From Candidatus Hadarchaeota archaeon (GTDB lineage Archaea > Hadarchaeota > Hadarchaeia > Hadarchaeales > Hadarchaeaceae): 64,000 nt of DNA. Below the pieces are notes generated by a model that was not told the origin of the DNA, ran no database searches, and was given only the letters and a program-made list of their open reading frames with translations. Every line of letters starts with the position of its first letter. Position 1 is the stretch's first letter. Position numbers and translations under genes: made by a program. The stretch is from contig JBFMBF010000001.1 of assembly GCA_040755315.1 (NCBI GenBank), forward strand, positions 29,109 to 93,108, written 5' to 3'. This document shows, one piece after another, positions 3,731 to 58,242 of this stretch.

Positions 3731-3778
3731 GTTTGCCTCGGATTAAAAAGCCGAAAAGAACATTTCTATTTGGTTTCA

Positions 3779-6390: not shown

Positions 6391-7413
6391 TTGATGCCGG
6401 AAAAGGAGATTAGGGTGAACCTGAAACGGTTAATCGTTTCAGTTATAGTGGGCGCAGTTCTCATAGTGCTTGCCCTGCTCCTCATCTCAAAGGAGAACCT
6501 CACGGATATGATGAACGCGATTTTAAAAGCAAACTACGCCTTGGTTCTCTCTGCAGTCGGGATTTTTTTCTTCGGCCTCGCTCTATGGTCCTCCCGCTGG
6601 AAGATGATATTGGCATCCGCGGGCCATAAGACAAAGTTTTCCCGCCTATACCCCATACAACTGAGCGGGGTTTTCATAAACAACGTCACCCCGTTCACGT
6701 ACAGCGGCGGGGACCCCATCGCCCGATCTTATCTGTTAAAAAAGACCCACAGTGTCCCATACTCCGCAGGTTTCGCCACGATGATAGGGGAATTCGTCAT
6801 GGATTTCCCCATATTCTTCTCGTTCCTGATTCTCGGACTGGTTCTTGGTTTCGGGACACTCTCGGCGTCAACGTTGTTGGTCCTTTTGGTCGTATGGGCG
6901 TGCGTGCTTTTCTTCTTCATGTCCATGGTACCCCGCGCCTTTTGCAGATTGAACCATCCGAAGATAGCACACTTGATTTACAGGGCCCTTAAAGCCATTA
7001 AAAGGCCGAGGCGCGAGGCCGAAATATGCCGCACATTGAACCGTTTCGTCAATCCACTGCGCATGATAGTTGATAACAGGTTCGCTCTTCCGGTAGCTTT
7101 CATCTCAATCATGATATGGATGACAATAATGATGAGATATCTGCTGATATTTGAGGCGCTTGGCATCCACCCATCCATACCTATGCTGCTCATGACCCTG
7201 ACGCTTCCGGCCATTGTCGGGCTAGTCCCAGTTCTACCCGCAGGGCTGGGGACGGTTGACTTCACCTACTATTCAATCTTCACGCTTTTCAACGTCCCGC
7301 AAAGCTTGGCGCTGAGCGCAATACTGGTGGAGCGGATGATAACTTTTGTCTTGGGAATAATAGTCGGCGCAATTGCTTTGTCATACTTGGGAGTGAAGAT
7401 CTGGAAGAAGTGA
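6391..7413 (+). CDS. Flippase-like / lysylphosphatidylglycerol-synthase-TM-region family membrane protein (UPF0104)
   Basis: About 8 TM helices and a UPF0104-like layout; located next to glycosyltransferases. Confidence 0.55.
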   Translation: MMPEKEIRVNLKRLIVSVIVGAVLIVLALLLISKENLTDMMNAILKANYALVLSAVGIFFFGLALWSSRWKMILASAGHKTKFSRLYPIQLSGVFINNVTPFTYSGGDPIARSYLLKKTHSVPYSAGFATMIGEFVMDFPIFFSFLILGLVLGFGTLSASTLLVLLVVWACVLFFFMSMVPRAFCRLNHPKIAHLIYRALKAIKRPRREAEICRTLNRFVNPLRMIVDNRFALPVAFISIMIWMTIMMRYLLIFEALGIHPSIPMLLMTLTLPAIVGLVPVLPAGLGTVDFTYYSIFTLFNVPQSLALSAILVERMITFVLGIIVGAIALSYLGVKIWKK

Positions 7414-7417
7414 CCCG

Positions 7418-8125
7418 TTATTTCTTGATTTCTCTCAAGTACCCCTTCTTTTTAACCTGTCCCGTCTTGAACAGGCCGAGGTAACCCTGCAGGTACATCT
7501 TCACGGTTGATGCGTGTCCCTTCTGTTTGGTCCTTCTTATTGAGGTAACGGCGAGCATCTTTGGTTCAAATTTTTCTTTCCCGTACTTGTTCATTCTAAT
7601 GGAAAGATCGACGTCGTCCAGCATGTCCAAGTCTTCCCTGAAACCGCCGGCTTTGATGTAAGTTTCTCGGAGATAGGCGCAGCTTGCTCCAGAGAAGTGA
7701 TGTGAGCCAAAGAATGAGAACAGCCTTCGAATCAAGTCTGCGCCTAAAAAGAAGATTATTTTGTCCAAAAAGCTTCCACTTTCCGGGAGCAGCGGGCCGC
7801 CGACGCCGACTACTCCCTTTTTGAAAGCCTTGTCCACGACTTCTAGGTAGTTTGGCGGGACTGTGGTGTCCCCGTCGACAAAAACAACGATTTCTGAATT
7901 GACCTTCCGGACGGCGAGGTTCCTAGCCGCCGTTGCCCCCTTCCCCTCGTCGAAGATTATCTTGTTCGTGTACATTTTGGCCACCTCAACAGTGTTGTCC
8001 TTGCTGTGGCCGTCCACCACCACGAGCTCGTAATCCTTGAAAGTCTGATTTTTGATGCTCTCCAGACACCGACTTATGGTTTTTCCCTCGTTGAAGGTCG
8101 GGACTATCACCGAGATTCTCATCAT
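7418..8125 (-). CDS. Glycosyltransferase family 2 (dolichyl-phosphate sugar synthase-like)
   Basis: ISVIVPTFNEG N-terminus, DGHSKDNT, and a DGD motif; paralogous to the two downstream GT2 genes. Confidence 0.8.
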   Translation of the reverse strand: MMRISVIVPTFNEGKTISRCLESIKNQTFKDYELVVVDGHSKDNTVEVAKMYTNKIIFDEGKGATAARNLAVRKVNSEIVVFVDGDTTVPPNYLEVVDKAFKKGVVGVGGPLLPESGSFLDKIIFFLGADLIRRLFSFFGSHHFSGASCAYLRETYIKAGGFREDLDMLDDVDLSIRMNKYGKEKFEPKMLAVTSIRRTKQKGHASTVKMYLQGYLGLFKTGQVKKKGYLREIKK

Positions 8126-38474: not shown

Positions 38475-38552
38475 GGGCCCGTGGCCTAGTATGGATAAGG
38501 CGGCAGCCTTCTAAGCTGCAAATCGTGGGTTCAAATCCCACCGGGCCCGCCA
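38475..38552 (+). tRNA. tRNA-Arg (anticodon UCU), CCA encoded
   Basis: Manual cloverleaf: acceptor GGGCCCG/CGGGCCC, D-arm GCCT/AGGC, anticodon stem GCAGC/GCTGC with loop CTTCTAA, T-arm GTGGG-TTCAAAT-CCCAC, discriminator G, and CCA. Confidence 0.85.
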
Positions 38553-38621: not shown

Positions 38622-39506
38622 ATGGCCAGAATAAGCATAATTGGCAGCGGCGTCGTCGGGACGATAGTCGGCAAGGGATTCAGGAGCTTGGGCAACGACG
38701 TGGTTTTTTACGACATCAGCGAGAAAAAAGCGAGGCAGCTGAGGAACCAGGGTCTTGACGCCACAACCGACATCGCCTTGGCGGCCAGGAAGACGGACGT
38801 TTCTTTCATATCGGTGCCGACTCCTTCAAAGGCCGGCAAAATAAACCTGGACTGCATAAAGTCCGCGGTGGAGAGCCTCGGCAGGTGCATCGGCGAGAAG
38901 AAAAGGTATCACCTGGTGGTAGTCAAAAGCACGGTGGTTCCGACCACGACGGAAAAGGTCGTCATCCCGCTGCTCCAGAAAAGCTCTGGCAAAAGGGTCG
39001 GGAGAGAAATGGGCGTCTGCATGAACCCCGAGTTCCTGACGGAAATCCAGAAGTCATGGACAAAAGAAAAGGATTTCACGCGGGACTTCTTCAGCGAGGA
39101 GAGAATCGTCATCGGAAGTTTCGACAAGAAGTCCGGCGACGCGCTTCAGAAGCTTTACAGGCCCCTCAAGGCCCCGGTCTTCCGGACAAACCTCAGCACG
39201 GCCGAGACCGTCAAGTACGCGAGCAACTGCGCCTTGGCGTCCAGAATTTCCTACTGGAACGAGATTTTCTTCATATGCCAGAAAATAGGCGTCGACTCTA
39301 ATTTCGTGGCCCAGGTCGTGGGCATGGACAGCAGGATAGGGAGGTATGGAACTATCCACGGGAAGGCATTCGGAGGCAAGTGTCTGCCCAAAGACCTCGA
39401 TGCATTCATAGCTTTTTCCAGAAGCGTTAGCCACGAGCCGAAGCTCCTCAAGGCCGTCGCCGACATAAACAAAAGGATCGGAAAGGAGCGCGGGGTGAGA
39501 GAGTGA
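38622..39506 (+). CDS. UDP-glucose/GDP-mannose dehydrogenase family protein, N-terminal and central domains only
   Basis: N-terminal IIGSGVVG Rossmann motif and a catalytic-Cys motif GGKCLPKD. It ends at 294 aa, lacking the usual C-terminal UDP-binding domain. The stop overlaps the start of the next gene. Confidence 0.6.
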   Translation: MARISIIGSGVVGTIVGKGFRSLGNDVVFYDISEKKARQLRNQGLDATTDIALAARKTDVSFISVPTPSKAGKINLDCIKSAVESLGRCIGEKKRYHLVVVKSTVVPTTTEKVVIPLLQKSSGKRVGREMGVCMNPEFLTEIQKSWTKEKDFTRDFFSEERIVIGSFDKKSGDALQKLYRPLKAPVFRTNLSTAETVKYASNCALASRISYWNEIFFICQKIGVDSNFVAQVVGMDSRIGRYGTIHGKAFGGKCLPKDLDAFIAFSRSVSHEPKLLKAVADINKRIGKERGVRE

Positions 39507-40354
39507 AGGTGGTCATCCCTGCGGCGGGGCTCGGGACCAGGCTCCTCCCAGCCACTAAAGAGCAGCCGAAGGAGATGCTTCCCCTCTTTGCGAAGGCCAG
39601 CGATGGCCAGCCCTACCTAAAGCCTCTCCTCCAGCTGGTTTTTGAGCAGCTTTATGACCTTGGCCTCCGCGAGTTCTGCTTTGTCATCGGGAGGGAAAAG
39701 AGAGCAATCGAGGATCACTTCACGCCTGAGCCAGACTACATCAAAATGCTGGAGAAGCTTGGGAAAGACGATGTGGCAAATGAGCTCGCTGGTTTTTACA
39801 GGAAGGTCGAGAAGTCAAAGCTGGTATGGGTAAACCAGCCAGAGCCCCGGGGTTTCGGCGACGCGGTGCTCAGGGCAGCGCCGTTCGTCGGCGATGACTT
39901 GGTGTTCGTGCATGCGGGAGACACTTACATAATCTCCGGCGAAGCCAAGCATCTCAAGGAGCTGATATGTACCCACAAAAAGATGGACGCCGACATGACC
40001 TGCCTCATCCGCGAGGTGGAGAACCCGAGGCAGTTCGGTGTCGTGGAGGTGGAAAAAGTCGCGGGCAAACTCTTCAAGCTGAAAAAGGTCGTGGAAAAAC
40101 CGGAAAAGCCAAAGACAAACCTTGCCATCATGCCAATCTACATCTTCCGCCCAGCGATCTTCAAGGCCCTGGGGGAGGTTCCGCCGGGGAAGGGCAACGA
40201 GATACAGCTTTCGGACGGCATCCAGAGCTTGATAGACTCCGGCCTGGCCTGCTATGCCATCAAGCTGACGTCCAGGGACATCTGGCTGGACATCGGGACG
40301 ATTGAGACATACTGGAATGCTCTGAAAACATCGTTTGAGCGGGCGGTTGGTTGA
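39503..40354 (+). CDS. UTP--glucose-1-phosphate uridylyltransferase-like sugar nucleotidyltransferase
   Basis: VIPAAGLGTRLLPATKEQPKEMLP GalU-type signature. Confidence 0.7.
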   Translation: MKVVIPAAGLGTRLLPATKEQPKEMLPLFAKASDGQPYLKPLLQLVFEQLYDLGLREFCFVIGREKRAIEDHFTPEPDYIKMLEKLGKDDVANELAGFYRKVEKSKLVWVNQPEPRGFGDAVLRAAPFVGDDLVFVHAGDTYIISGEAKHLKELICTHKKMDADMTCLIREVENPRQFGVVEVEKVAGKLFKLKKVVEKPEKPKTNLAIMPIYIFRPAIFKALGEVPPGKGNEIQLSDGIQSLIDSGLACYAIKLTSRDIWLDIGTIETYWNALKTSFERAVG

Positions 40355-40355
40355 C

Positions 40356-41303
40356 ATGGCTAGAAAAAAGACGGCCGTTGTGACGGGCGGCTCTGGATTC
40401 ATAGGGTCGTGGGTTTGCGAGCGGCTCCTGCAAGATGGGTTCGGCGTCATCTGCGTGGACAACATCAGCTCGGGGAACAGGAGGAACATCGCCCACCTGC
40501 GAGATAATGAAAACTTTGAGTTCATGGAGCAGGACGTGAGGGAGCCGATGAACATCCGCGCACGGGTTGACACAGTTTTCCATCTCTCCTCGCGGGCGTC
40601 TCCGGTTGATTTTGTGGAGCATGCTGTTGAAATCTTGATGACGAACTCAACTGGGACTAGGAACTCGCTGGAGCTGGCCAGGAAAAACAAGGCCCGCTTT
40701 CTGCTGGCGTCGTCCTCCGAGGTCTACGGGAACCCTCTCGAGCATCCACAGAGGGAGACATACTGGGGGAACGTCAACCCCAACGGCGTCAGGTCCTCAT
40801 ATGACGAGTCAAAAAGGTTCTCCGAGGCCCTCACTTCAGCATACGTCAGAAACCACGGGCTGGACGCAAGGATTGCGCGGATTTTCAACACATACGGCCC
40901 AAGGATGAGGAAGGACGACGGAAGGGTGATCCCAAACTTCACATCCCAGGCGCTGAGCGGAAGGCCAATCACGGTTTATGGGGACGGCTCACATAGCCGG
41001 GCGTTCTGTTATGTGGAGGACTTGGTGGACGGGCTGGTGAGGCTGGCATTCAAAGGAGGCCTGAAGGGGGAAGTGGTCAATGTTGGAAACCCGAGGGAGG
41101 TGAAGGTTCTCGAGGTCGCGAAGCTGGTGAAAAAAATAACGGGCACCAAATCCGAGATTGTTTTCAAGCCCCTGCCAAAAGACGACCCCGTCCGACGGAG
41201 GCCCGACATCTCCAAGGCGAGGAGGCTTCTGAAGTGGGAACCCAAAGTGCCGCTGGAAGCTGGGTTGCAGAAAACCATAGAATACTTCAAAAAATTTAGT
41301 TGA
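40356..41303 (+). CDS. UDP-glucuronate decarboxylase-like (UXS) extended SDR epimerase/dehydratase
   Basis: TGGSGFIGS Rossmann motif, a YDESKR catalytic YxxxK, and overall UXS-like layout; about 315 aa. Confidence 0.65.
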   Translation: MARKKTAVVTGGSGFIGSWVCERLLQDGFGVICVDNISSGNRRNIAHLRDNENFEFMEQDVREPMNIRARVDTVFHLSSRASPVDFVEHAVEILMTNSTGTRNSLELARKNKARFLLASSSEVYGNPLEHPQRETYWGNVNPNGVRSSYDESKRFSEALTSAYVRNHGLDARIARIFNTYGPRMRKDDGRVIPNFTSQALSGRPITVYGDGSHSRAFCYVEDLVDGLVRLAFKGGLKGEVVNVGNPREVKVLEVAKLVKKITGTKSEIVFKPLPKDDPVRRRPDISKARRLLKWEPKVPLEAGLQKTIEYFKKFS

Positions 41304-41318: not shown

Positions 41319-42266
41319 TCATTTTTCCACTTTTTCCCAGTATTCAAGGGTGTCGGCGAGGGTTTTTTCTATGGGGACTTTCGGCTCCCAGCCGCACTCC
41401 CTCCTTATCTTGGCGTTGTCCCCCACCACGATGGGCTCGTCAGTCGGGCGCAGTTTTTTCGGGTCAACCTCCACGTTCACTTGCAGGCCGGAGATTTCGA
41501 GCAGCTTGTCCAGAATGTCCCCTATCCTGAGCGGCTTTGAGGAGCAGATGTTGTAGACATCGCCGAACTTTCCCTTTTCCAGCAGGACCCAGAAGGCGTC
41601 CAGCGTGTCCTGAATGTCCATAAGGTCGCGCACCACGTCCAGGTTGCCCACGTGTATGACTGGCGCCGCCTCCCCGCGCTTTATCCCAACAATCTGGCGG
41701 CAGAAGTCTGAGCAGGCGTCACCCACCTTTCTCGGGCCGGTGGCGCCGAAAATCCTCACGCGTACTGTCTTCATCCCGTAGTTTTTGAAGTACTGGTAGG
41801 CGAGGAGGTTCTGGGCCACCTTGCTCACGCCGTACGGGCTGACTGGAAGGAGCGGGTGGTCCTCCCTGATGGGCGGCTCATCCTTTTTTATGAGCCCATA
41901 CTCAGCGCTCGAGCCGGCCACGAGTATCTTTGGGTCGAGCCCCAGCTGCCTCACGGACTCGAAGAGGTAGACAGTCCCCATCACGTTCGTGTCCATCGTC
42001 TCGACCGGGTCTATCCAGGAGACATCCGGGCGGCTCTGGGCGGCGAGGTGGAAGATGATGTCAGGGGAGCTTTCCTTAACGGCGTTTCTCACCTCAGGCA
42101 GGCTACGCATGTTGCATTTTATCAGCTTTATTTTATCCCGCGCATGCTCGATGCCACCCATGCCGGCGTCCCTGACGGTCCCGAACACCTCCATTTTTTT
42201 CGCCGTGAGAAAGTCGGGGAGATAGCTCCCGATGAAGCCGTTTATTCCAGTAACCAATGCTCTCAT
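41319..42266 (-). CDS. NAD-dependent epimerase/dehydratase (GDP-mannose 4,6-dehydratase / Rmd-like)
   Basis: VTGINGFIGS and a YGVSK catalytic YxxxK; extended SDR fold. Confidence 0.65.
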   Translation of the reverse strand: MRALVTGINGFIGSYLPDFLTAKKMEVFGTVRDAGMGGIEHARDKIKLIKCNMRSLPEVRNAVKESSPDIIFHLAAQSRPDVSWIDPVETMDTNVMGTVYLFESVRQLGLDPKILVAGSSAEYGLIKKDEPPIREDHPLLPVSPYGVSKVAQNLLAYQYFKNYGMKTVRVRIFGATGPRKVGDACSDFCRQIVGIKRGEAAPVIHVGNLDVVRDLMDIQDTLDAFWVLLEKGKFGDVYNICSSKPLRIGDILDKLLEISGLQVNVEVDPKKLRPTDEPIVVGDNAKIRRECGWEPKVPIEKTLADTLEYWEKVEK

Positions 42267-42358
42267 TTAAGTCCCTCGATATTTGGTCTATCCGCGGATA
42301 TTAAACTCTGACTAAGCACATGTTTGGCAACCTTGAGACTTGCATCGTCATCAATCGG

Positions 42359-42372
42359 TGAACGTTCGCAAT
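42359..42372. promoter_or_regulatory. Operator-like palindrome, copy 1 (imperfect: GTGAACGTTCGCAAT)
   Basis: Shares the AACGTTCGCAA half-site with copies 2 and 3; about 95 bp upstream of the epimerase start at 42266. Confidence 0.4.
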
Positions 42373-42408
42373 CGCGCCAACTTCTCCAGAAATTGTTTTT
42401 GTGAGCAG

Positions 42409-42422
42409 TGCGAACGTTCGCA
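42409..42422. promoter_or_regulatory. Operator-like perfect 14-bp palindrome, copy 2 (TGCGAACGTTCGCA)
   Basis: Perfect dyad; its centre lies 52 bp from copy 1, about five helical turns. Confidence 0.45.
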
Positions 42423-42423
42423 A

Positions 42424-42663
42424 TCATTCAACGCCGCACTTGGCGCCGCGGATGAGGTTTACCCTTGCCCCACGGTTGCGGCAGAAGTGGGCCACTTCCA
42501 AGGCGACGCCCAGCTTCTCGGCCTCGACCACGCTGTATTGGATTCGCCTCGCCAAACCCATCGATTCCAGACGACCAAGCAAGCAGTACAGGCTGCGCGG
42601 CGCCTTGCCCTTGAAATCATATATCACGTAGTTGCGAACGTTCGCAATCTTCGTTTTGCTCAT
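42424..42663 (-). CDS. Small putative DNA-binding / regulatory protein, hypothetical
   Basis: An 80-aa ORF (MSKTKIANVRNYVIYDFKGKAPRSLY...) with native-like GC3-rich codons. A TTATAA TATA-like element lies about 30 nt upstream on its strand. The 16-bp palindrome lies within its first codons. No family assignment. Confidence 0.3.
   Translation of the reverse strand: MSKTKIANVRNYVIYDFKGKAPRSLYCLLGRLESMGLARRIQYSVVEAEKLGVALEVAHFCRNRGARVNLIRGAKCGVE
42632..42647. promoter_or_regulatory. Operator-like perfect 16-bp palindrome, copy 3 (TTGCGAACGTTCGCAA)
   Basis: Perfect dyad about 150 bp upstream of the GHMP kinase start, within the first codons of the small minus-strand ORF. Confidence 0.45.
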
Positions 42664-42798
42664 TTTTTCCCGCCGAAGCTTTGCGTGAACGATCCTTATA
42701 AGCAAGAAAAATGTCCCCAGCCGACGCGTACCTGGCTAAAACTTGCGCCATTCACCAAACGCCTAAATATGTCGCTGCGAACTCGTTATTGGATAGTC

Positions 42799-43779
42799 AT
42801 GATAATAACAAGAACTCCTGCCAGGATAACTTTTGGCGGGGGCGGCACAGACCTGCCGTCTTATTACTCAAAGCGCGGGGGGCTCGTGATCGGCGCGGCG
42901 ATAGACAAGTACATCTACATCGACCTCCACGACATCTTCATCAACAAGGTCATCGCCCACTACTCAAAGTCCGAGATGGTGAACCACGTGAACCAGCTGA
43001 AGCACCCGATAATCAGGGAGGCCCTGAAGCTGACGGGAGTTACAAAGAAAATAGAGGTGGGAAGCATGGCGGACATACCCGCGAGGGCAGGCCTGGGCTC
43101 TTCCGGAAGCTTCACAGTCGGCCTGCTGAGGGCGCTTCACTTCCACAACAGGGAGTATGTCCCGCCGCAGGAGCTTGCTGAGGAAGCCTGCAAGATAGAG
43201 ATAGACATTCTGAAGGAGCCGATTGGGAAGCAGGACCAGTACATCGCGGCTTTCGGAGGCATAATTTCCCTGATTTTCGAGAAGGACGGCAAGGTGATAG
43301 TGGAACCGCTGAGGATGAACAAAAAGACAATAGAGGACCTGGAGAGGAACCTGCTCCTGTTTTTCACTGGGTTTTCAAGGACTTCCCACGTCGCCCTGAA
43401 GAGGCAGGACAGGCTCACCAAGGAAAAGGACGAGGCGATGCTGAAAAGTCTGGATGAGATAAAAGAGATTGGTTACAAGTCTAGGGACGCCCTGAAAGCC
43501 GGTGACACCAGGCGTTTCGGGGAGCTTATGAACCTTCATTGGCAGAGCAAGAAGAAAAGGTCCGGCAAGATCAGCAACCCAAAAATAGACCGGTGGTACA
43601 AAATCGCGCTGAAAAACGGCGCCATCGGCGGGAAGCTGGTCGGCGGAGGGGGAGGCGGCTTCCTAATGTTTTACGCGAAGGATAGAAGATGGCTTAGGGA
43701 GACCATGGCCAGAGAAGGCCTGGAAGAGGTAAAGTTCAGGTTTGATTTCGAGGGTTCAAAAGTCATAGTTGGAATGTGA
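42799..43779 (+). CDS. hddA: GHMP-family sugar kinase, D-glycero-D-manno-heptose 7-phosphate kinase (HddA)-like
   Basis: MIITRTPARITFGGGGTDLPSYY N-terminus matches HddA-type kinases, and PARAGLGSSGS is the GHMP ATP-binding motif. Start at the internal ATG; the upstream ORF extension covers the regulatory region. Confidence 0.6.
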   Translation: MIITRTPARITFGGGGTDLPSYYSKRGGLVIGAAIDKYIYIDLHDIFINKVIAHYSKSEMVNHVNQLKHPIIREALKLTGVTKKIEVGSMADIPARAGLGSSGSFTVGLLRALHFHNREYVPPQELAEEACKIEIDILKEPIGKQDQYIAAFGGIISLIFEKDGKVIVEPLRMNKKTIEDLERNLLLFFTGFSRTSHVALKRQDRLTKEKDEAMLKSLDEIKEIGYKSRDALKAGDTRRFGELMNLHWQSKKKRSGKISNPKIDRWYKIALKNGAIGGKLVGGGGGGFLMFYAKDRRWLRETMAREGLEEVKFRFDFEGSKVIVGM

Positions 43780-50586: not shown

Positions 50587-53500
50587 TTGAGGCCGTTAGC
50601 TGTAGCTCTGGTCCTTTTGTTCGTGTCAACTTATCTCGCCCCGCTTTCCTCGGCTCTTGAAGAAAATTCAAGTGCAACGTTCTCATTTACCATCCCGCAA
50701 GATGAAAACACTCAGGCCGAAAACTCCTCGCAGGGTCCGGACGCAACCTCTCCGGACAACGGCGAGAACTTGGACAACTCGGAACCGGAGAACCTCGTCT
50801 GGTACTACGCCGAAAACCTGTGGGCCCCGGCAGAGGTGCACAGCCCGTTCGCCAACAGGGTTTTCTTCATAAACGCGCCCTATGACCCGACCGAAGGCCT
50901 GCCGGAGAACATGTTGGGGTTGCCGGATGGAGTATACTGCGACCTCAACGGCGGCCAGGCGACCGTGGGATTCCCAAACGAGGCCAGGAACGCTTTTCTA
51001 GACTACGGGGTGCCCATCCCTCCCGGCACTGACCTGATCATCTTTGACCGTGGAAGCCTTGACCTGCCGAACCTCGTGACTTTTGGTTTCGGTGCCCCTG
51101 TGGACGCGGACAACGACGGGATGGCGGATAATCCATCTGGCGTTGCCAGCTATATTGGAGGAGCAGTTTCTCCGCTGCCGTATGGCTCCATCGAACTCCT
51201 GAACCTGGCGTTTTTTGACATCGGCGATTACGGTCAATTGAACCCAATACCAAACAACTTGTTTGTGTCTGTAGACGATGCAGGCGACTACGACGTGGAC
51301 TCGTTTGAGATAGGGTTTTCGGTTCTAGATACAGCGCCGCCCACTTCCATGGTTCTGCCGTTCGATGGCGAGGAATACTGGAAGGAGCTTGAGCCGGGAC
51401 AGAGTTTTTCCGTCAGCGCGGTGGCGGCCGACAACGTTGGAGTGAGAAATGTCCAGCTCTGGTATAGGTATTCGCTCGACAACTGGACGGACAACGTGGC
51501 ATGGAAGAAGCGCGGCTGGCAGCTGTATGGGGCGGACGTGAGCGGCGCCGATGGATGGAGCTGGAACTTCACACCCGAGAAGTACGGGTACTACGAGTTC
51601 GTCAGCGTGGCGACTGATTCGAGTGGGAACCGGGAGGACAAGGAAAACGTGTTTAGAGATAACTTGGCGGAGGCGAGATGCAGAGTGGCGAAGGATCTGG
51701 TGAGAGTGGCGGTGATCTTCGCGGAACCAAACGATGTTGATAATTTGGGCCAGCGGAATTGGGTTGATCCACAAACTGGACAAACAGAAAACTTACCAAC
51801 TCGTGAATTTTTCCGAAGGACTTTTGGAATACTGAAGAGTTATTGCGATGAGGTTTCATCTGGGGCGTTGGCAGTTAGGTTAGAAGACGAAGATATACAC
51901 GATGCAAATGGTATTTGGTATACGCTTGGCATGCCGCAAAACAACTATCTTTATTTTTACAGACCAGCGGGCAGCTGGACATATTCAAATCAATTTCTCA
52001 TAGATGCGATAAACGCGGCGGATGTTGATATCGTGTATGGAGACTATAAAGCAGTTATTGTCGTTGGAGCACTTGGTACTTTTCCAGGGCTCTTTGCTTA
52101 CTATGGCGGGGCAGATTATAAACTGGAAGAAGTCAAGACTAACACAGATGAAATAGCGTACAACCCAATATTTTTTGACGAGTTAGATGTAGATCCAAAT
52201 GACCTTACGCTAGCTCACGAAGTTGGGCATGCGCTTGGAAAAATACTTGCTAATGAAAAGCTTCCAGAGCTTTACAATACAACTGGATCATGGGGAGATG
52301 TAGATGGCTGGGATCCAATGGGGAATGAGCGTTGGCCGGTCCACTATTCTTCTTGGAGTAAGGAGCGCCTGAAGTGGCTCAACTATCAAAAAGGCGACCT
52401 TACTTCACCTCTAGGCGGCGTTCTCGCTGGCCATATAGATGCACTACCAACTCTTGCTTATGGTGACAACGTATATTTCCTCAAGGTCGATCGGCAGGAC
52501 CAGTGGTGGTGGGGCTGGGGAAACGAGGTCTGGTACGCGTTGGAGTTTAGAACAAACGATCCAAGTGTTAGTAAGGGAGACACAGATGTGCGGGGCACCG
52601 GTTTGGTCATTTACCAAGTAGACTATAGTTGGGAACTGTGGGGGCTAAAATCATATACACGCGTAAATGTTGTAGAAAACGATCAAGACCCGGCCAGCCC
52701 AACTTGGCTTTTACCTTGGGAAATTTACCACTCGGGAATAGGTAATGGAGCGATATTTGCTGCGGGAGAAATTTTTTACCACACGGACGAGGCGTTTCCT
52801 TGGGGCAAAGTTCCCAGCATGAATTTTGTGGTGCAGTATCCATACCCGAAAAGCAGCGCCACAGCCGTGATGTTCCAGATTCCATACGAACTCCGCGGAG
52901 CACTGGCGTCGGCTTCTGTGCAACCGTCGCCGGACTTGGATTTGCATGCTTACGCTGCAGATGGCAGACATGTGGGGGTTAATTATGAAACCGGCGAATA
53001 TGAGATTGAAATAACTGGGGCAACTTCGTCAGGCGACCTATTCCAGGGGAGCGAATGGATTTCAGTTCCTTCAGGCATCGATGCTTTTTTTGTCGTTAGC
53101 AGCCGCGATGTGAAGGAGGCTATACAAGCAGGCGTTGAGCTTGAGAACGAAGCCGGCCTCTATGCCATCAGAGTGGCCCATACAGATGAAAACAGAAATC
53201 TGTATTTCTCACATGCAATTGGACGAGAAATAATGCCTGGTGAAGAAATTGCCCACACGACCACCGCAAGAGTTAAAATAGAAAATATTGCCACCAAGCC
53301 TTTCTCACCGAACCGCGATGGCATAAAAGACACGGCCACTGTTTCATATTTACTTATCGACAACTTCTGGCAAAAGGCCAAGGTTTTAATTGACATTTAC
53401 AATGACGACAACAAGCTGGTTAAAAGGTTGTTTTCGGATTGGGAGAACGCTGGCCGCGATGGTCTGCTTTATTTGTATACATGGGACGGCCGAGATGAAG

Positions 53501-56500
53501 ATGGAGCCATTGCCCCAGACGGAGTTTACACTGTTCGAGTAGACGCGGCGGATGCAATGGGAAACCGTGACGAGGCAAGTGCACAAGTGATTGTTGACAC
53601 CACTTATCCGGTGTCGCTCGTCGAGTCCCCACGGCTCTGGCAAAATACAGAAAACTTTACGGTAACCGCGACAACATCGCATGATTTGAGCGGGATTGAA
53701 AACGTGGAGTTATGGTACAGGTACAGCCCTGACAATCTCTCGTGGTCTGACTGGCAACTTTACGGCTTCAACAACGAGGAACCATATTCCTGGAATTTCA
53801 TGGCAGAAAACGACGGATTTTATGACTTTTACAGCAGGGCAACCGATTGGGCAGGCAATGCCGAGCCACGCCCGAGGAAAGGGAATTGGTCGATGTATGG
53901 GGCCAATCCAGGTCAGACGTTTTACTCCAACTCGTCCGTGCCCCTGCGTCCCGCTTTAGCTTGGAGCAGAAATTTCGAGTCTGAGATATGTGCCCCCGTG
54001 ATTGCCGACAACATGGTTTACGTCGTCAAAGAGGACGGCATAGCTTCCCTCCAAGCTTCGACCGGCAGCACGGTATGGGAGCACTCAGGGTTGGGGTACG
54101 GCGGACCGGAAGTAACATACGGCCCGGCGGTAGTCGGCGGAAACGCGTACGCGTTCTTCGGAGTTGATGGCGAAGGATATCTGTACAGCCTGGACGCAAA
54201 CACGGGGGAAATTCTATGGCGCGCGGCCCCGCCTTACGGCGCCGACTACACGATGAAGGTGCTGGTGGCGGACGGCGTCGTCTACCGGGTTTTCGTGGAC
54301 GACTACGGCAACCCCGCGCAGGTCGTCGCCCTCAACGCCCAGAATGGCAGCTACATTTGGGATACCGGCGACATGGGTGGCAACTTGTACGCCGTGGAGG
54401 ACGGACGCGTTTATCTTAGCCGCGGGGCAAGCGGCGCTGACTGGGTGGATGCCGCCACTGGGGAGTTCGGGGGGCATTACGTGTACCTCGTCGACGGGGA
54501 GATTGTTTCATGCCCATACGACGGCTCAACCCGTCTCGATTTTCTTTATGAAGAAGAGATCGAGGTCGAATACGGCAGGCGTTACGAGTTCTATTTCTGG
54601 TGCCCGAAACATGGCCATGTTGTTGTCCGTGAAGGGCAGGAGATGGAAAAAACGTTTGCCGGGCAGCGCTTCCCTGTCGAGCCGAGGGCCCTGGCGGTGG
54701 CCGATGGCATCGCATACATCTACGGAGAGGACGGAAGCCTGCGTGCCGTTGACACCGCAACGATGCAGACACGCTGGAGCGCCGAGCTTCTCCAGACACC
54801 CAGGCTGCCGGGGTACACCCGCGTCCGGCACGATGGGGCGCTGGCCGTGGGGGACGGCAGGGCTTACCTCGACTTGCGGGAGGTGTATTCTGCATACGAA
54901 GGGGGGCGCTGGATAACCACTTCGTACCACACCATTTACACGGTGGATTCTTCCACCGGAGAACTCCTCTGGGGTTATGATTTCGGGTGGTGGCCGCTGG
55001 ACGGAGGCTGGAGTTTGCACCACCCATACTTGTCTTTAGCCGCTGTGGACGGGAAACTCGTAGTCGGCTCGCCAGACGGGTTGTTCATCCTGAACGGCGG
55101 CAATGACTCAATTGTCTGGAAGAACGAAGATGTGGGCTTTGGAAAGGTCGCTCTGGCGGGAGGAGGGATTTACTACGCGGCCGGAAATAGCCTGTTTTAT
55201 TTCGAGCCGTCAAAGGTCCAAGTCGGCGTGGACACCGCTCCGCCAGATTCGCTCGTTACCCCGATTGAACCCCACTGGCGAACGCTTGGGCCGCTTGAAG
55301 TTAGCGCCACAGCGTCCGACGCGCTGAGTGGAGCCGAAAACGTAGAGCTCTGGTACCGGCACTCGACCGACAACGTGACATGGAGCGGCTGGAAGCCGTA
55401 CGGAAACATGTCGGCCGGAGAAGCGCTGCACAAGGTGAAACTCAGGATAGAGTTCCCGGAAAAAGTCAAGTGGGTGAACGGCGGGGTCATGGTCGGCAAT
55501 CACGTCTTCCAGCAGACTTACGAGGAGAACTCAGTCTTCGAGCTGGAGACCCCCGCGGCGTTCAGAAGAGGCGACACCGTTCAGTGGTACATAGATATGT
55601 GTGTGGAGGGGGCAGGCGGAGAGGTGGAATACTGGACGGGTTACCAAACCCTCGCAATCGAGGACAAGGATGTTTTAATCAATATGGTCATTCATGATTT
55701 GACGGACGAGCGGGCTTTCTCGTTCATGATTTCCGAATACCTGACGCCCCAGACGTTCCAAATCACGTTCACCCCTCCTGCGGGAGACGGCTTGTATGAT
55801 TTTTACTCCATCGCCATTGACCGGGCCGGAAACCGCGAGCAACCCCCCGAAACGGCCGATACAAGAGCTGGCGTCGATACGACTCCTCCCGAATCCCACG
55901 CTAACCCAATAACACCATACTGGCGCAACGCAAACGCTGTGCCGTTTGAGGTGACCGCAACGGCGTTCGATGGGTTAAGTGGCGTAAAGCGGGTGGAGCT
56001 GTGGTACCGATATTCTCCCGACAACCGGAGTTGGGGCAACTGGGCGATGTTCGGCACAGATAATGGGTCGCCCTGGCAATGGCAATTTGATGCGCCCGAA
56101 GGCGACGGATTTTACGAGTTCTGCAGCGTTGCCACAGATGAGCTTGGGAATGCTGAGTTCCTTGTGCCAGTGTTCGTGGACGAATTCGCCGGCACTTTGG
56201 ATTCAACGACTTGGGCGGTCGGGAAGGTGAAAGTCAAGAACGACAGCGCGGCAGTGTCGGGCGGGCACCTGCAACTGGCCTCAAGGGCGGCCACGGCGGG
56301 CACCTATGGCGCGATTTACGCGGTTTCTAATTCTCCATTCGACTTCAGCCGGGGCTTGATATTTGACGTTTCAATGTCTGTGCCAACGGACAACGCGCCA
56401 GCCGACTTCAGGAGCGAGTTTTACCTGGCGCCAGACTACACGACAACGGCAAACCCGCACGACCAGCCGAACTGGATCCGGGTCTCCGCGAGCGTTGACC

Positions 56501-58242
56501 GGGACGGGGTGCGCTGGATGCTCCAGCGACGTCGCGGCGGTGGCGGAGTCGGCACACTCGGCGAGAACGAAGAAATCCTCGACAACGTGGAACCCGCCGA
56601 AGAGTCCCACATGTACACCTCCGGCCCCACCACCAAGCTAAGCGGCACATGGAAGATTTTCATTGACAGCGAAAGCATCACGGTCTGGCTGGACAGCGAG
56701 CTGGTGGAGCCCGCCAGGTCGCACGAGCTGAACTTCACAAGCGCCTACCTTTACCTGGTCGAACGCACGAAGGTCGCGCCCGTCTACACGGTAAGCTTTG
56801 ACCACGTTATTGTGCAGGAGTTTTCGGCAGACGCCAGCGTCGGCATCGACACCGTCCCGCCCAAATCGTCCGTTGACCGTATTTCACCCTACTGGCAGGC
56901 CTCGGCGCCGTTCACGATAACAGCCACGGCTTCCGACGGGATGGCCGCGCCCCCCAGGGAAGATTTTGAGGGCAAAACAATTTCGAGCCTTAGAGGGCAG
57001 GGCTGGAAAATCTACCTAGAGCCCGGCTCTTCCCCTGCTCCATCGTCGGAAGTGGTCGATGGAGTGCTCAGGATGACCAACACCTCTGGGAACTGGTACG
57101 GCCTGTATTACCCGGCTGAGTGGACCGACTACACGCTGTCCTTCAGGGCGAGATACTCAGCATACGCAGCTGTAACGCTGTTCCACATGGGAGACCCGGT
57201 CGAGGCGACATCGTTAGAGTTGATTCCGAGCTATGCTTTCAGGTTCGGGGAGACCTACTCCCTGCTCGGCTGGTACGGCCCGGGCTACGGCGGCTGGTGG
57301 CAGAGCGGCCCCGGGGTGGCGCCGGACATCTGGCATGATTTCGAGATAAGGGTCGACGGGACAAGCTTTGAGGTAAGTGTCGACGGGGCGCAGGGGCTCG
57401 CCTTTACCAGCGACAGGTGGTTGAGCGGGGGAATCGGGTTCATCGTGGCGGGGGGAACGCTGGAGATTGACGATGTGGTTGTGGCCGGAGTTGATTACGT
57501 GCCCACCAGCGGCGTCTCGGACGTGAAACTGTACTACAGAAGCTCGTTCGACGGACTGAACTGGGGTGGGTGGAAGCTGTTTGGAGAAGACGGCACGGCG
57601 CCGTACGAGTGGTCGTTCGACATCCCAGCTGGCTACGGATTCTATGAGTTCTACTCTGTCGCCACCGATGTCGCGGGAAACGTCGAGGCGCCTCCGGGTT
57701 GGGCCGACGCCAGCTGCGCCACCCTGATACAGGCGACAGTCGACATAGACCCCGACACCCTGAACCTGAAGAGCAAGGGCAAGTGGATAACGGCCTACAT
57801 TGAGCTGCCGGATAGCCTTGATGTGGCAAACATTGATGTGAGCACTGTGGCCATCGAGGGCGACACCTTCCTTGAAGGGGCATTGTTCGCCGAGTCCCGG
57901 CCAACGAAAATCGGCGACCATGATAGCGACGGAATCCCGGACTTGATGGTCAAGTTCAACAGGTCGGCCGTTCAGGGGCTGGTGAGTGTTGGCGACAACG
58001 TTGAGCTGGTTGTGGTTGGGAAGTGGAACGAGATTCCATTCCGCGGGAGCGACAGCATCCGGGTAATCGACCCCGGCCAGAGCTGCGATGAAAGTCATGA
58101 GGACAAGCCAAACGCTCCGCCAAGCCATTCAGTAAGTCATCCGGGACAAGGCCAAGGCGATCAAGGACATGGTAACTCCGGCGGGAATCAAGGACAGGGC
58201 AACAGAAACAGTGAAAAAACCGGGAAGGGTAAGAGGAATTGA
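50587..58242 (+). CDS. Giant secreted multidomain surface protein (2551 aa)
   Basis: The signal peptide is followed by an N-terminal domain with no recognised family, then an HExxH (LAHEVGHALG) zincin-like, M6/InhA-like peptidase region. An FlgD-Ig-like domain follows (FSPNRDGIKDTATVSY...WDGRDEDG). There are at least five copies of a roughly 110-aa module (DTxPPxS...VELWYRYSPDNxSW..W..YG...P..W.F....GDGFYEFYSVATD..GN.E.PP). A PQQ-type beta-propeller segment (LYSLDANTGEILW, VVALNAQNGSYIWD) and two concanavalin/LamG-like (DUF1080-like) jelly-roll regions follow. The tail is Gly/Gln/His-rich with no C-terminal TM anchor. Confidence 0.8.
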   Translation: MRPLAVALVLLFVSTYLAPLSSALEENSSATFSFTIPQDENTQAENSSQGPDATSPDNGENLDNSEPENLVWYYAENLWAPAEVHSPFANRVFFINAPYDPTEGLPENMLGLPDGVYCDLNGGQATVGFPNEARNAFLDYGVPIPPGTDLIIFDRGSLDLPNLVTFGFGAPVDADNDGMADNPSGVASYIGGAVSPLPYGSIELLNLAFFDIGDYGQLNPIPNNLFVSVDDAGDYDVDSFEIGFSVLDTAPPTSMVLPFDGEEYWKELEPGQSFSVSAVAADNVGVRNVQLWYRYSLDNWTDNVAWKKRGWQLYGADVSGADGWSWNFTPEKYGYYEFVSVATDSSGNREDKENVFRDNLAEARCRVAKDLVRVAVIFAEPNDVDNLGQRNWVDPQTGQTENLPTREFFRRTFGILKSYCDEVSSGALAVRLEDEDIHDANGIWYTLGMPQNNYLYFYRPAGSWTYSNQFLIDAINAADVDIVYGDYKAVIVVGALGTFPGLFAYYGGADYKLEEVKTNTDEIAYNPIFFDELDVDPNDLTLAHEVGHALGKILANEKLPELYNTTGSWGDVDGWDPMGNERWPVHYSSWSKERLKWLNYQKGDLTSPLGGVLAGHIDALPTLAYGDNVYFLKVDRQDQWWWGWGNEVWYALEFRTNDPSVSKGDTDVRGTGLVIYQVDYSWELWGLKSYTRVNVVENDQDPASPTWLLPWEIYHSGIGNGAIFAAGEIFYHTDEAFPWGKVPSMNFVVQYPYPKSSATAVMFQIPYELRGALASASVQPSPDLDLHAYAADGRHVGVNYETGEYEIEITGATSSGDLFQGSEWISVPSGIDAFFVVSSRDVKEAIQAGVELENEAGLYAIRVAHTDENRNLYFSHAIGREIMPGEEIAHTTTARVKIENIATKPFSPNRDGIKDTATVSYLLIDNFWQKAKVLIDIYNDDNKLVKRLFSDWENAGRDGLLYLYTWDGRDEDGAIAPDGVYTVRVDAADAMGNRDEASAQVIVDTTYPVSLVESPRLWQNTENFTVTATTSHDLSGIENVELWYRYSPDNLSWSDWQLYGFNNEEPYSWNFMAENDGFYDFYSRATDWAGNAEPRPRKGNWSMYGANPGQTFYSNSSVPLRPALAWSRNFESEICAPVIADNMVYVVKEDGIASLQASTGSTVWEHSGLGYGGPEVTYGPAVVGGNAYAFFGVDGEGYLYSLDANTGEILWRAAPPYGADYTMKVLVADGVVYRVFVDDYGNPAQVVALNAQNGSYIWDTGDMGGNLYAVEDGRVYLSRGASGADWVDAATGEFGGHYVYLVDGEIVSCPYDGSTRLDFLYEEEIEVEYGRRYEFYFWCPKHGHVVVREGQEMEKTFAGQRFPVEPRALAVADGIAYIYGEDGSLRAVDTATMQTRWSAELLQTPRLPGYTRVRHDGALAVGDGRAYLDLREVYSAYEGGRWITTSYHTIYTVDSSTGELLWGYDFGWWPLDGGWSLHHPYLSLAAVDGKLVVGSPDGLFILNGGNDSIVWKNEDVGFGKVALAGGGIYYAAGNSLFYFEPSKVQVGVDTAPPDSLVTPIEPHWRTLGPLEVSATASDALSGAENVELWYRHSTDNVTWSGWKPYGNMSAGEALHKVKLRIEFPEKVKWVNGGVMVGNHVFQQTYEENSVFELETPAAFRRGDTVQWYIDMCVEGAGGEVEYWTGYQTLAIEDKDVLINMVIHDLTDERAFSFMISEYLTPQTFQITFTPPAGDGLYDFYSIAIDRAGNREQPPETADTRAGVDTTPPESHANPITPYWRNANAVPFEVTATAFDGLSGVKRVELWYRYSPDNRSWGNWAMFGTDNGSPWQWQFDAPEGDGFYEFCSVATDELGNAEFLVPVFVDEFAGTLDSTTWAVGKVKVKNDSAAVSGGHLQLASRAATAGTYGAIYAVSNSPFDFSRGLIFDVSMSVPTDNAPADFRSEFYLAPDYTTTANPHDQPNWIRVSASVDRDGVRWMLQRRRGGGGVGTLGENEEILDNVEPAEESHMYTSGPTTKLSGTWKIFIDSESITVWLDSELVEPARSHELNFTSAYLYLVERTKVAPVYTVSFDHVIVQEFSADASVGIDTVPPKSSVDRISPYWQASAPFTITATASDGMAAPPREDFEGKTISSLRGQGWKIYLEPGSSPAPSSEVVDGVLRMTNTSGNWYGLYYPAEWTDYTLSFRARYSAYAAVTLFHMGDPVEATSLELIPSYAFRFGETYSLLGWYGPGYGGWWQSGPGVAPDIWHDFEIRVDGTSFEVSVDGAQGLAFTSDRWLSGGIGFIVAGGTLEIDDVVVAGVDYVPTSGVSDVKLYYRSSFDGLNWGGWKLFGEDGTAPYEWSFDIPAGYGFYEFYSVATDVAGNVEAPPGWADASCATLIQATVDIDPDTLNLKSKGKWITAYIELPDSLDVANIDVSTVAIEGDTFLEGALFAESRPTKIGDHDSDGIPDLMVKFNRSAVQGLVSVGDNVELVVVGKWNEIPFRGSDSIRVIDPGQSCDESHEDKPNAPPSHSVSHPGQGQGDQGHGNSGGNQGQGNRNSEKTGKGKRN

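Follow-up and report, generated by a model that had tools for sequence, protein, structure and literature searches.

Introduction

Cas2 proteins are homodimers, and the prevailing view derives Cas2 from mobile or toxin-like genes; endoribonuclease activity has been reported for a number of Cas2 and VapD proteins, as the names of their Protein Data Bank (PDB) entries record. The DNA-binding domains of papillomavirus E2 and of EBNA1 are dimers of ferredoxin-like subunits that read palindromes. The locus described here, which bears comparison with these systems, is a ~430-bp module within a 64,000-nucleotide stretch of a Candidatus Hadarchaeota archaeon contig (hereafter the window, to whose numbering all unprefixed coordinates refer). 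It comprises a 79-codon gene, currently annotated only as hypothetical, together with three copies of a short palindrome (dyads), and is set between two divergently transcribed genes of a nucleotide-sugar cluster. It can be stated with considerable confidence that the gene is real and its product Cas2-like, that the arrangement of dyads about the open reading frame (ORF) is conserved and co-varies with it, and that the unit as a whole is an insertion. Loci used in the comparisons carry L numbers, and individual homologous proteins P numbers.

The small gene, its promoter and its dyads

An earlier annotation of the window (the original prediction) had proposed that the small ORF was a real gene with its own TTATAA element, that residues IANVRN (codons 6–11) were encoded by a 16-nt palindrome, and that two further copies of this dyad lay between the epimerase and kinase genes. 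Each of these points was borne out, the last at the level of sequence. The features of the module are as follows.

42424–42663, minus strand: ORF of 79 codons plus stop, with a predicted Cas2-like product of 79 residues
42669–42683, minus strand: leader CAAAGCTTCGGCGGG, between TATA box and ATG
42696–42701, minus strand: TATA box TTATAA of the module promoter, ~33 nt upstream of the ATG
42632–42647, unstranded: dyad 1, perfect 16-mer TTGCGAACGTTCGCAA, in codons 6–11, 15 nt downstream of the ATG
42409–42422, unstranded: dyad 2, perfect 14-mer, beginning 1 nt after the stop codon (TGA, 42424–42426, minus strand)
42357–42370, unstranded: dyad 3, degenerate copy GGTGAACGTTCGCA (12/14 identity), 52 nt from dyad 2

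A protein with 100% identity to the product is on record as a hypothetical protein of 'Candidatus Hadarchaeota archaeon', and eight relatives were recovered at 60–88% identity, every named source among them being a member of Hadarchaeota. A singleton homologue at 37% identity (P0016), set apart from Hadarchaeota homologues at 60–82% identity and derived from a metagenome-assembled genome (MAG), is annotated 'Hadesarchaea archaeon', which belongs to the same phylum. Pairwise ratios of non-synonymous to synonymous substitution (dN/dS) among the homologues were 0.10–0.17 at dS values of 0.56–1.4, and therefore indicate purifying selection on the 79-residue protein. When 1.84 billion representative proteins were searched exhaustively with a profile, ten matches were returned, one of them a spurious repeat protein, from which it follows that the family is very small, and in the searches made it was found only in Hadarchaeota. 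The protein is strongly basic (15 Lys + Arg versus 6 Asp + Glu; net charge ~+9), and its gene is co-directional with the epimerase gene.

The same promoter architecture recurs among the homologues, in that (C)TTATAA or TTTATA is present at the same distance from the ATG in L001, L006, L012, L002, L008, L010 and L031, while the leader CAAAGCTTCGGCGGG shows almost no variation among the window, L001, L006 and L012 and can be recognised in L010. This leader probably holds the transcription start region and a Shine–Dalgarno-like GGCGGG. Comparison of these sequences bore out that the ORF is an authentic, conserved gene equipped with an archaeal promoter of its own.

The 14-mer TGCGAACGTTCGCA occurs exactly at 42409–42422 and 42633–42646 and at no other position in the window, the chance expectation for one given 14-mer being ~64000/4^14 = 2.4e-4. 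The copy at 42633–42646 extends to the perfect 16-mer of dyad 1, which encodes residues I6-A7-N8-V9-R10-N11. All matches in the window to the 10-nt core with ≤1 mismatch were confined to the module region, and a 17-nt direct form, nGnGAACGTTCGCAATC, is common to all three dyads. The degenerate third site had been placed at 42359–42372 by the original prediction; the site itself is real, but its register is shifted by 2 nt from that position. The predicted spacing of 52 bp between the centres of dyads 2 and 3 was likewise correct, but its interpretation as a conserved five-turn spacing was not upheld: relatives have dyads 51, 62–63, 70–73, 84 or 87 nt apart, and the second-to-third spacing alone varies among 62–63, 51, 71–72 and 84 nt as against 52 nt in the window, so that there is no consistent helical phase. 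A possible weak fourth dyad at 42685–42694, by the TATA box and 51 nt from dyad 1, was treated as a chance occurrence because it is not conserved in any homologous promoter.

An inserted unit between two sugar genes

The features that define the junctions of the module with its surroundings are as follows.

41319–42266, minus strand: SDR epimerase/dehydratase gene, flanking gene of the nucleotide-sugar cluster
42799–43779, plus strand: HddA-like GHMP kinase gene, flanking gene of the nucleotide-sugar cluster
42318–42748, minus strand: inserted module of ~430 bp, holding the promoter, the predicted Cas2-like ORF, three dyads and degenerate end motifs
42316–42331, unstranded: downstream end motif GTTGCCAAACATGTGC (gene orientation), abutting the boundary; degenerate, homologous to the right terminal repeat of relatives, AGCTAAACACGTAC
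42731–42748, unstranded: upstream end motif GCGCAAGTTTTAGCCAGG (gene orientation), abutting the boundary; degenerate, homologous to the left terminal repeat of L001, GTACGTGTTTAGCT
42298–42305, minus strand: TATA-like element TTTAATAT of the epimerase gene, outside the insertion; kept as ATATTAAAC in L034 and L035
42763–42770, plus strand: TATA-like element CTAAATAT of the kinase gene, outside the insertion; kept as CCTAAATAT in L034 and L035

In three related Hadarchaeales contigs, with kinases 77–82% identical to that of the window, the epimerase/kinase pair is likewise divergent and is followed downstream by the same genes; the intergenic regions there are 73, 114 and 111 nt long and hold neither the small ORF nor a dyad (the empty orthologous sites are listed as L033, L034, L035 and L036). 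Homology of the flanks to L034 and L035 stops at CTGACTAAGC (42308–42317) and restarts at CATTCACCAAACGCCTAAATATG / CATTCACCAAAC (42749 onward), the two blocks being separated by only ~9 nt in L034 and L035. Because flank homology ends and resumes in this way relative to the empty sites, the window carries an insertion of ~430 bp (~42318–42748). These boundaries were read by eye from a manual alignment and are good to ~5 nt, automated global alignment against the empty sites having scattered the blocks so as to be unusable. Presence/absence polymorphism was thereby seen at orthologous sites.

The L001 copy (GCA_030018345.1) is a 462-bp unit with a perfect 14-bp terminal inverted repeat, GTACGTGTTTAGCT...AGCTAAACACGTAC, flanked exactly by a perfect 8-bp direct duplication, CGGAGACT (L001:5899–5920 and L001:6355–6376). 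This combination is a signature of transposition, and to judge from these ends the L001 module looks like the product of a recent transposition event. The terminal inverted repeat is partial in L006, the end motif is in direct orientation in L012, and no terminal repeat was detected in the array-bearing loci described below; in the window no target duplication was recognisable. Two copies of the module occur on different contigs of one MAG (L008 and L011). No candidate transposase was identified in the contig fragments covered. The unit thus behaves, as far as aligned sequences can indicate, like a small transposable insertion, and in this respect it approaches the miniature inverted-repeat transposable element (MITE) whose presence the original prediction had named as an outcome that would count against it; the dyad itself, by way of contrast, is not a dispersed genomic repeat.

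The same comparisons bear on the proposal that the dyads and the small ORF control the flanking nucleotide-sugar genes, in which the protein would be a local transcription factor with operators governing the epimerase and the HddA-like kinase. The dyads do lie between the divergent sugar genes, dyads 2 and 3 being positioned 90–155 nt upstream of the epimerase ATG, and the small gene is co-directional with the epimerase gene; read-through or other incidental effects on the latter are possible. Set against this, the pair exists in three relatives with a 73–114-nt intergenic region devoid of ORF and dyads, the TATA elements of both sugar genes are outside the insertion, and none of the homologous modules adjoins sugar genes. 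This explanation accordingly retains very little probability, and the comparative evidence does not support the region as a shared operator set: the sugar-nucleotide cluster has ordinary, short divergent promoters, and the extra 430 bp are best not taken for their regulatory region.

The window copy of the module retains an intact promoter, ORF and two perfect dyads, with decay at the third dyad and at the ends. More extensive damage was seen in other copies and in the proteins predicted from them.

L008 and L025: frameshifts
L012 (module 3823–4253, minus strand): in-frame TAG replacing a conserved Glu codon (GAG to TAG)
L011: 5' truncation
L010 (6150–6300, a Hadarchaeum contig): promoter, ATG and dyad 1 kept, ORF body missing, second dyad 72 nt on
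P0008, P0010, P0012 and P0013: read-through products

The TAG codon of L012 may reflect pseudogene decay, an error in sequencing or a case of recoding, and the state of L010 resembles the outcome of recombination between dyads with loss of the intervening DNA. The damaged copies indicate that recombination between dyads or array units does occur, and the frequency of decay fits a dispensable, selfish element.

Homologous loci, downstream arrays and co-variation of dyad and protein

About ten homologous loci were found in Hadarchaeota, each in an unrelated gene neighbourhood, and the window has nothing in common with them except the module. The neighbouring genes identified were as follows.

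L001: GH31 and MoaC
L002–L005: AAA_14/DUF4143 and ATPase_2 ATPases
L006: NrdD and its activase
L008: Memo and a radical SAM protein
L010: an uncharacterised 303-residue ORF and a THUMP methyltransferase
L011: a formyltransferase and EF-1alpha
L030: EF-2 and GATase
L031: RpoH (Rpb5)

Most of these loci share one layout, with a dyad in the N-terminal codons (~6–10), a second exactly 224 nt later, past the stop codon, and 1–12 more downstream; it was seen in the window, L001, L002–L005, L006, L008, L012, L023 and L025, while L010, L011 and L031 are without the in-gene dyad or part of the ORF. Dyad 1 is the same in sequence and position in L001, L002, L004, L006, L008 and L012, and the distance from dyad 1 to dyad 2 is 224 nt in the window, L001, L002, L004, L006, L012 and L023. 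Dyad 3 of the window is the counterpart of the first unit in the downstream arrays of its relatives, and this third copy is perfect in L001, L006 and L012, where it lies 62–63 nt from dyad 2.

Downstream arrays of 5–10 units with a period of 70–73 nt (~71) are present in L002, L004, L008, L011 and L023. Total array length ranges from 2 to 14 copies and differs even between near-identical genes (L002 versus L004), and the units all share the orientation of the gene. Their spacers are of two alternating, mutually related types, and both the types and individual spacers are conserved from one genome to another (global alignment of L002_6239 with L011_2314, for instance, scores 49 over 57 nt); the arrays are for this reason considered to have grown by tandem duplication.

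A more complex arrangement was noted in L002, where a 10-copy array (L002:6239–6812) is followed by an opposite-strand ATPase_2/MCM-WH gene (6849–7883) and then by four further dyads in the same orientation as the array (L002:8044–8414; also in L003 and L005), the last of which is 43 nt upstream of a gene of the IF-2B family. The L002 array seems either to enclose the ATPase_2/MCM-WH gene or to have received it as an insertion. A functional link between the module and the AAA_14/DUF4143 and ATPase_2 genes that flank the L002–L005 arrays was considered and rejected, there being no such link at L008, L010, L011, L001, L006, L030 or L031.

Two comparisons point to selection on the nucleic acid of the dyad itself. 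Across 6 loci there is no difference at any of the five codons of the dyad, whereas only 14/40 of the codons for other invariant residues are identical; the synonymous positions of dyad 1 are frozen. The non-coding dyads, similarly, have remained perfect at dS values of 0.6–1.4, at which the spacers can scarcely be aligned. An information profile compiled from 51 sites showed all 12 core positions, the centre included, to be invariant within a conserved block of ~15–16 nt, with weak signal to ~20 nt.

Where the protein has diverged, so has the dyad. A different dyad with the same 16-bp geometry, TTGCGCAGGTGCGCAA, occurs at either end of the P0016 gene (L030), at the start codon and 9 nt past the stop codon, and the P0012 gene (L031) is followed by four copies of a variant, GGCGAACGTTCGCC, its in-gene copy having been lost. 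These patterns support the conclusion, drawn from comparative sequence data, that the dyad is specifically tied to the ORF and changes as the protein diverges.

The dyad outside the modules

Scans for paired dyads across 185,579 genomes and JGI metagenome contigs gave archaeal matches only in the modules described above and 0 matches in viral contigs. The original prediction had offered as an alternative that the dyad was a regulon-wide operator, an idea that is supported neither by this result nor by the lack of any further exact copy in the window. Bacterial paired-dyad matches were recovered from Massilia, Pseudoduganella and Saccharothrix. In Massilia niastensis (L007:3418–3488; similar pairs in L009 and L013–L018) the identical TGCGAACGTTCGCA pair lies between a LacI-family gene (2332–3366, minus strand) and a catechol-dioxygenase-type gene (3536–4426, plus strand), and on the strength of this one locus examined the bacterial pairs are read as unrelated LacI-type operators. 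Exact 14-mer pairs 78–80 nt apart, accompanied by no homologue of the small gene, were also observed in four soil metagenome contigs (L021, L022, L024 and L028; GC content 0.52–0.55).

The occurrence of an identical 14-mer pair in a LacI-type operator context in Massilia and Pseudoduganella raises the question of whether a host factor encoded elsewhere, either LacI-like or some other dimeric regulator, binds the archaeal dyads, in which case the ORF would be an unrelated passenger. Within Hadarchaeota, by way of contrast, the dyad is found only inside the module and at fixed positions relative to the ORF, it changes when the protein diverges, and it has no other copies in 64 kb; a host factor is consequently given hardly any credence. 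The match between the archaeal and bacterial 14-mers is sequence convergence only.

Predicted fold and probable relationship to Cas2

An AlphaFold (AF2) model of the monomer, built from an 8-sequence alignment, was obtained with a mean local confidence (pLDDT) of 85 and a predicted template-modelling (pTM) score of 0.74. Its topology, β1-α1-β2-β3-α2-β4, is ferredoxin/RRM-like (strands 9–16, 38–42, 45–48 and 67–74; helices 23–34 and 51–63). This outcome, with Cas2 as the only family to which relatives were found, is at variance with the ribbon-helix-helix (RHH), winged helix-turn-helix (wHTH) or AbrB fold for which the original prediction had suggested a test; the sole helix-turn-helix (HTH) matches were weak Pfam hits, HTH_23 (E 0.017) and HTH_29 (E 0.04), each in 1/12 members.

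The relationship to Cas2 emerged from four independent comparisons. The top Foldseek matches of the model to the PDB were mostly Cas2 structures (3exc, 2ivy, 4es2, 5g4d, 1zpw, 3oq2 and others), with weak scores (E 6e-3 to 6e-2; TM 0.5–0.59). CRISPR_Cas2 (PF09827) was the most frequent weak Pfam match (5/12 members; best E 0.042, short of the gathering threshold), and all PADLOC matches of the family were to Cas2 models (10/12 members; best E 4e-4). An hhalign comparison with an alignment of five PDB Cas2 proteins paired the motifs VIYD with VvYDV and wIQYSVvE with wvQnSVFE (E 0.011). D16, the aspartate of VIYD that pairs with that of the Cas2 YD motif, is present in 11/12 aligned members; Q42 is invariant, and S44 is found in at least 90% of members.

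Searches with the single window protein gave no match in Pfam or NCBIfam, PDB profile searches returned spurious matches only and no Cas2, and PHROGs gave no match, while a Foldseek search of BFVD was uninformative. A phage or plasmid origin for the module was rejected on the basis of the PHROGs result and the 0 viral paired-dyad matches. No cas1 or other cas gene was called within 4–6 kb at L001–L006, L030 or L031, no cas genes were found near the array in L008, L010 or L011, and the neighbours in the window are sugar-nucleotide enzymes.

On the evidence of the model and profile alignments the 79-residue protein is called Cas2-like here, as a probable remote homologue of Cas2. It is not filed as a member of the Cas2 family (PF09827/COG1343-type) because the scores stay below the family thresholds, no cas gene is nearby, and the adjacent array is not a true clustered regularly interspaced short palindromic repeat (CRISPR) array, its repeat being ~16 nt long and its spacers interrelated as opposed to unique.

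Putative recognition of the dyad and the proposed mechanism

Since the dyad co-occurs and co-varies with the ORF, a self-recognising and probably autoregulated protein is a reasonable reading. Of the earlier view of the ORF as an autoregulated small regulator, it is therefore the tie between ORF and dyad that has been substantiated, while self-recognition and autoregulation have the standing of that reading and no more. That the protein recognises its dyad is thought somewhat probable; that it does so on duplex DNA and thereby regulates its own gene is a tentative suggestion, falling a little short of an even chance.

In the mechanism proposed, the Cas2-like protein would form a two-fold-symmetric dimer that reads the dyad as duplex DNA, a symmetric 14–16-bp site being suited to a homodimer given the homodimeric state of Cas2 proteins. 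Occupancy of dyad 1, ~30–45 nt past the presumed transcription start, would throttle expression of the gene itself, and the post-stop and downstream dyads would provide a cooperative multi-site loading platform that serves the element and not its neighbours, for insulation, maintenance or recombination of the element. Movement of the element would probably be catalysed in trans by a separate transposase. The proposal as a whole, of a Hadarchaeota-specific, self-contained module whose Cas2-like product, as a dimer, would recognise the cognate dyad, limit its own expression and use the downstream sites for loading on behalf of the element, is put forward as about as probable as its contrary.

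Duplex DNA is favoured as the target because the core and centre are invariant over the 51 sites, the spacers have no conserved RNA structure, the predicted hairpins are weak, and T5 runs occur inside many array units. Local RNA hairpins at the dyads amount to only −5 to −9 kcal/mol at 37 °C, and the lineage is presumed to be thermophilic; T runs are expected to terminate archaeal transcription early. The LacI-type context in bacteria, where the same 14-mer would serve as the ordinary operator of a dimeric DNA-binding protein, was also counted in favour of DNA.

A number of observations weigh against the proposed mechanism. All of the data derive from MAGs and metagenome contigs. The terminal inverted repeat of the window copy is not significant (993/2000 shuffles). 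The Cas2 relationship was drawn from weak scores (best E 4e-4; Foldseek E 6e-3; TM 0.5–0.6), Cas2 is not known to bind DNA sequence-specifically, and binding of the dyad by this protein is putative. Dyad 1 lies 15–30 nt inside the ORF, not over the promoter or transcription start (at L030 dyad and start codon overlap), and a site so placed, away from TATA box and start, is unusual for archaeal repressors. The ~71-nt array spacing is not helically phased. The loss of the in-gene copy at P0012 shows that dyad to be dispensable in at least one lineage. Finally, the flanks in the 51-site profile are asymmetric, with T at −2 and TT at +15/+16 without mirror partners, which hints at a polar, possibly transcript-level, process.

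Such a process would be the basis of an RNA-level module, in which the dyads would function within the transcript, forming hairpins or else a long-range duplex of 16 bp between the 5' and 3' copies, and a Cas2/VapD-like RNA binder or endoribonuclease would bind or cleave its own mRNA at these sites and so autoregulate translation; in relatives with arrays, the ~71-nt repeat transcript would be converted to small RNAs, as in Cas6/CRISPR processing or a type III toxin-antitoxin system. The reported endoribonuclease activity of Cas2 and VapD proteins and the RRM-like topology are consistent with this possibility, as are the uniform orientation of array units with the gene and the asymmetric conservation, which includes a pyrimidine/T-rich tract 3' of the dyad. 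The dyad and the start codon overlap at L030, where the dyad centre, AGGU, is non-palindromic and resembles a tetraloop; dyads 1 and 2 are paired with each other in the minimum-free-energy structure of the predicted transcript. The whole-transcript z-score, however, is only −0.9, and RNAalifold analysis of the array spacers gave only the trivial dyad–dyad helix, with no covariation and no conserved structure. There was no Rfam match (including CRISPR-DR models) at E ≤ 1. The weak hairpins and T5 runs, the latter expected to end transcription of an array early, tell against a repeat transcript, as does the location of part of the L002 array beyond an oppositely oriented gene. The would-be loop positions are invariant across the 51 sites, and the minimal loci (the window and L030) hold no repeat RNA that might serve as an antitoxin. 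An RNA-level role is therefore viewed as rather unlikely, if the strongest of the competing accounts. Structured small RNAs of the C/D-box, ToxI or crRNA kind were looked for in the array units and rejected, no conserved C/D boxes being visible by eye and the RNAalifold and Rfam results being null.

A second account, framed by analogy with RAYT and IS200-type systems, would have the protein retain a catalytic Asp (end of β1) and cut or nick the dyad, as duplex or extruded hairpin, and so drive cassette-like rearrangement, array expansion and contraction, and perhaps propagation of the element. It is compatible with the alignment of D16 with the Cas2 aspartate, the precise bracketing of the ORF by dyads, the apparent loss of the ORF body in L010 from between dyad 1 and a dyad further downstream, the variation of array length even between the near-identical L002 and L004 genes, and the presence of a whole ATPase gene between two same-orientation array segments in L002. 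The boundaries of the insertion, however, are outside the dyads, at a separate terminal inverted repeat with target duplication, which points to a conventional DDE-type transposase acting in trans, and the dyad is not the target site because the empty sites contain none. Homologous recombination between 16-mers or 71-nt units suffices to explain changes in copy number, and no HUH/Tyr or other recombinase motif is present. A nuclease or recombination module is on these grounds considered distinctly improbable, and recognition of the dyad as duplex DNA by a Cas2-like dimer continues to be the preferred reading.

Other features of the window

A plus-strand ORF of 2551 residues (50587–58242), with a PQQ-type beta-propeller, several bacterial Ig-like domains and a 3-keto-disaccharide-hydrolase-like domain, lies beside the glycosylation gene cluster and probably encodes a giant surface protein. 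A tRNA gene (38475–38549) is directly upstream of a 294-residue UDP-glucose/GDP-mannose dehydrogenase-like ORF (38622–39506), which has the N-terminal and central domains and is without the C-terminal UDP-binding domain; the syntenic gene of L033 codes for 422 residues and all three domains, and truncation or rearrangement of the shorter ORF is possible. An additional gene for an SDR epimerase/dehydratase (40335–41303, plus strand), between the nucleotidyltransferase gene and the minus-strand epimerase gene, is missing from L033. The gene content of the cluster thus varies among related Hadarchaeales (window versus L033–L036).

Comparison with known systems

Among small mobile elements, the module resembles MITEs and small insertion sequences (IS) in the 14-bp terminal inverted repeat and 8-bp target duplication of L001, its presence/absence polymorphism, its variable intergenic sites, its decayed and truncated copies and its length of 430–460 bp. 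It differs in carrying a conserved, selected gene and no recognisable transposase, in its low number (1–2 copies per genome fragment), and in a terminal repeat that is degenerate in the window, direct in L012 and undetected at array loci. With the systems of repetitive extragenic palindromes (REP) and their associated RAYT transposases, and with IS200/IS605, it shares a gene bracketed 5' and 3' by one short palindrome that overlaps the 5' end of the gene, and a protein with an RRM/ferredoxin-type core. That protein nevertheless has neither a HUH motif nor a catalytic-Tyr helix. The palindromes show no genomic dispersal, and IS200/IS605 elements are without the terminal inverted repeat and target duplication that the Hadarchaeota element has.

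As a small protein encoded beside an array of presumed sites, with a possible autoregulatory site among them, the module also recalls ParR/parC, omega and its heptads, EBNA1 and its family of repeats (FR), and papillomavirus E2. It is unlike these in being chromosomal, with no partition ATPase or replicon and with binding that is putative, and its 71-nt period is far longer than typical iteron spacing. LacI/GalR-family operators offer the identical 14-mer, TGCGAACGTTCGCA, in paired form in Massilia, but belong to another domain of life, and the archaeal loci are without a LacI gene. Type III toxin-antitoxin systems (ToxIN-like) differ in that their repeats are upstream of the gene, whereas the array here is downstream; its spacers are without conserved structure, and minimal loci hold zero or one unit.

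The arrays resemble CRISPR arrays in being clustered, directional and regularly spaced at 70–73 nt, with short palindromic repeats next to a cas2-like gene. With a ~71-nt period and up to 14 repeats beside a 'cas2', they could be miscalled as CRISPRs. They differ in that ~16–20 nt are conserved per repeat, as against a criterion of ~23–50-nt identical direct repeats, in spacers that are related through tandem duplication as opposed to acquisition, in a first repeat that lies inside an ORF, and in having no leader, cas1 or effector genes.

The closest likeness is to Cas2 and the Cas2/VapD superfamily, with which the protein shares its size class (~80–100 residues) and its β1-α1-β2-β3-α2-β4 topology. 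It resembles Cas2 in the YD motif at the end of β1 and the strand motif Q-x-S-V-(F/V)-E, Cas2 was the sole family recovered by all four comparisons (Foldseek, Pfam, PADLOC and hhalign), and its gene adjoins regularly spaced repeats. It departs from Cas2 in its sub-threshold scores and in the lack of cas1 or any other cas gene within 4–6 kb. The C-terminal D-S-(V/I) segment of the Cas2 alignment is replaced by GA(K/R)V.LI.G, an N-terminal ANVRN peptide is encoded by the repeat, and the gene is located on a 430-bp mobile unit.

These comparisons raise the further possibility of a hitherto undescribed Cas2-derived system outside CRISPR, in which a stand-alone Cas2 homologue would recognise its own palindromic repeat sequence-specifically, as an acquired or an ancestral property, with an array on a tiny transposable element and without Cas1, spacer acquisition or effectors. 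This is regarded as doubtful. If true, a module of Cas2 plus repeats would bear on the origin of the association between Cas2 and palindromic arrays, or on its fate after CRISPR decay. In the searchable literature no description was found of a stand-alone Cas2 homologue with its own palindromic array, or of the Hadarchaeota element. Were binding to be confirmed, the protein would be the first Cas2 relative with sequence-specific recognition, and would provide a compact pair of protein and 16-bp site from a presumably thermophilic archaeal lineage. The occurrence of a Cas2-like gene on a mobile element with regularly spaced palindromic repeats bears, in addition, on the evolution of the CRISPR adaptation module. 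Each ingredient has precedents, in Cas2/VapD-fold proteins and in small elements with terminal repeats and target duplication, and the module is not categorically new; what it presents is a probable Cas2-fold protein in a new setting, encoded by a free-standing gene that is under selection, carried on a small mobile element and physically interspersed with a palindromic repeat of its own.

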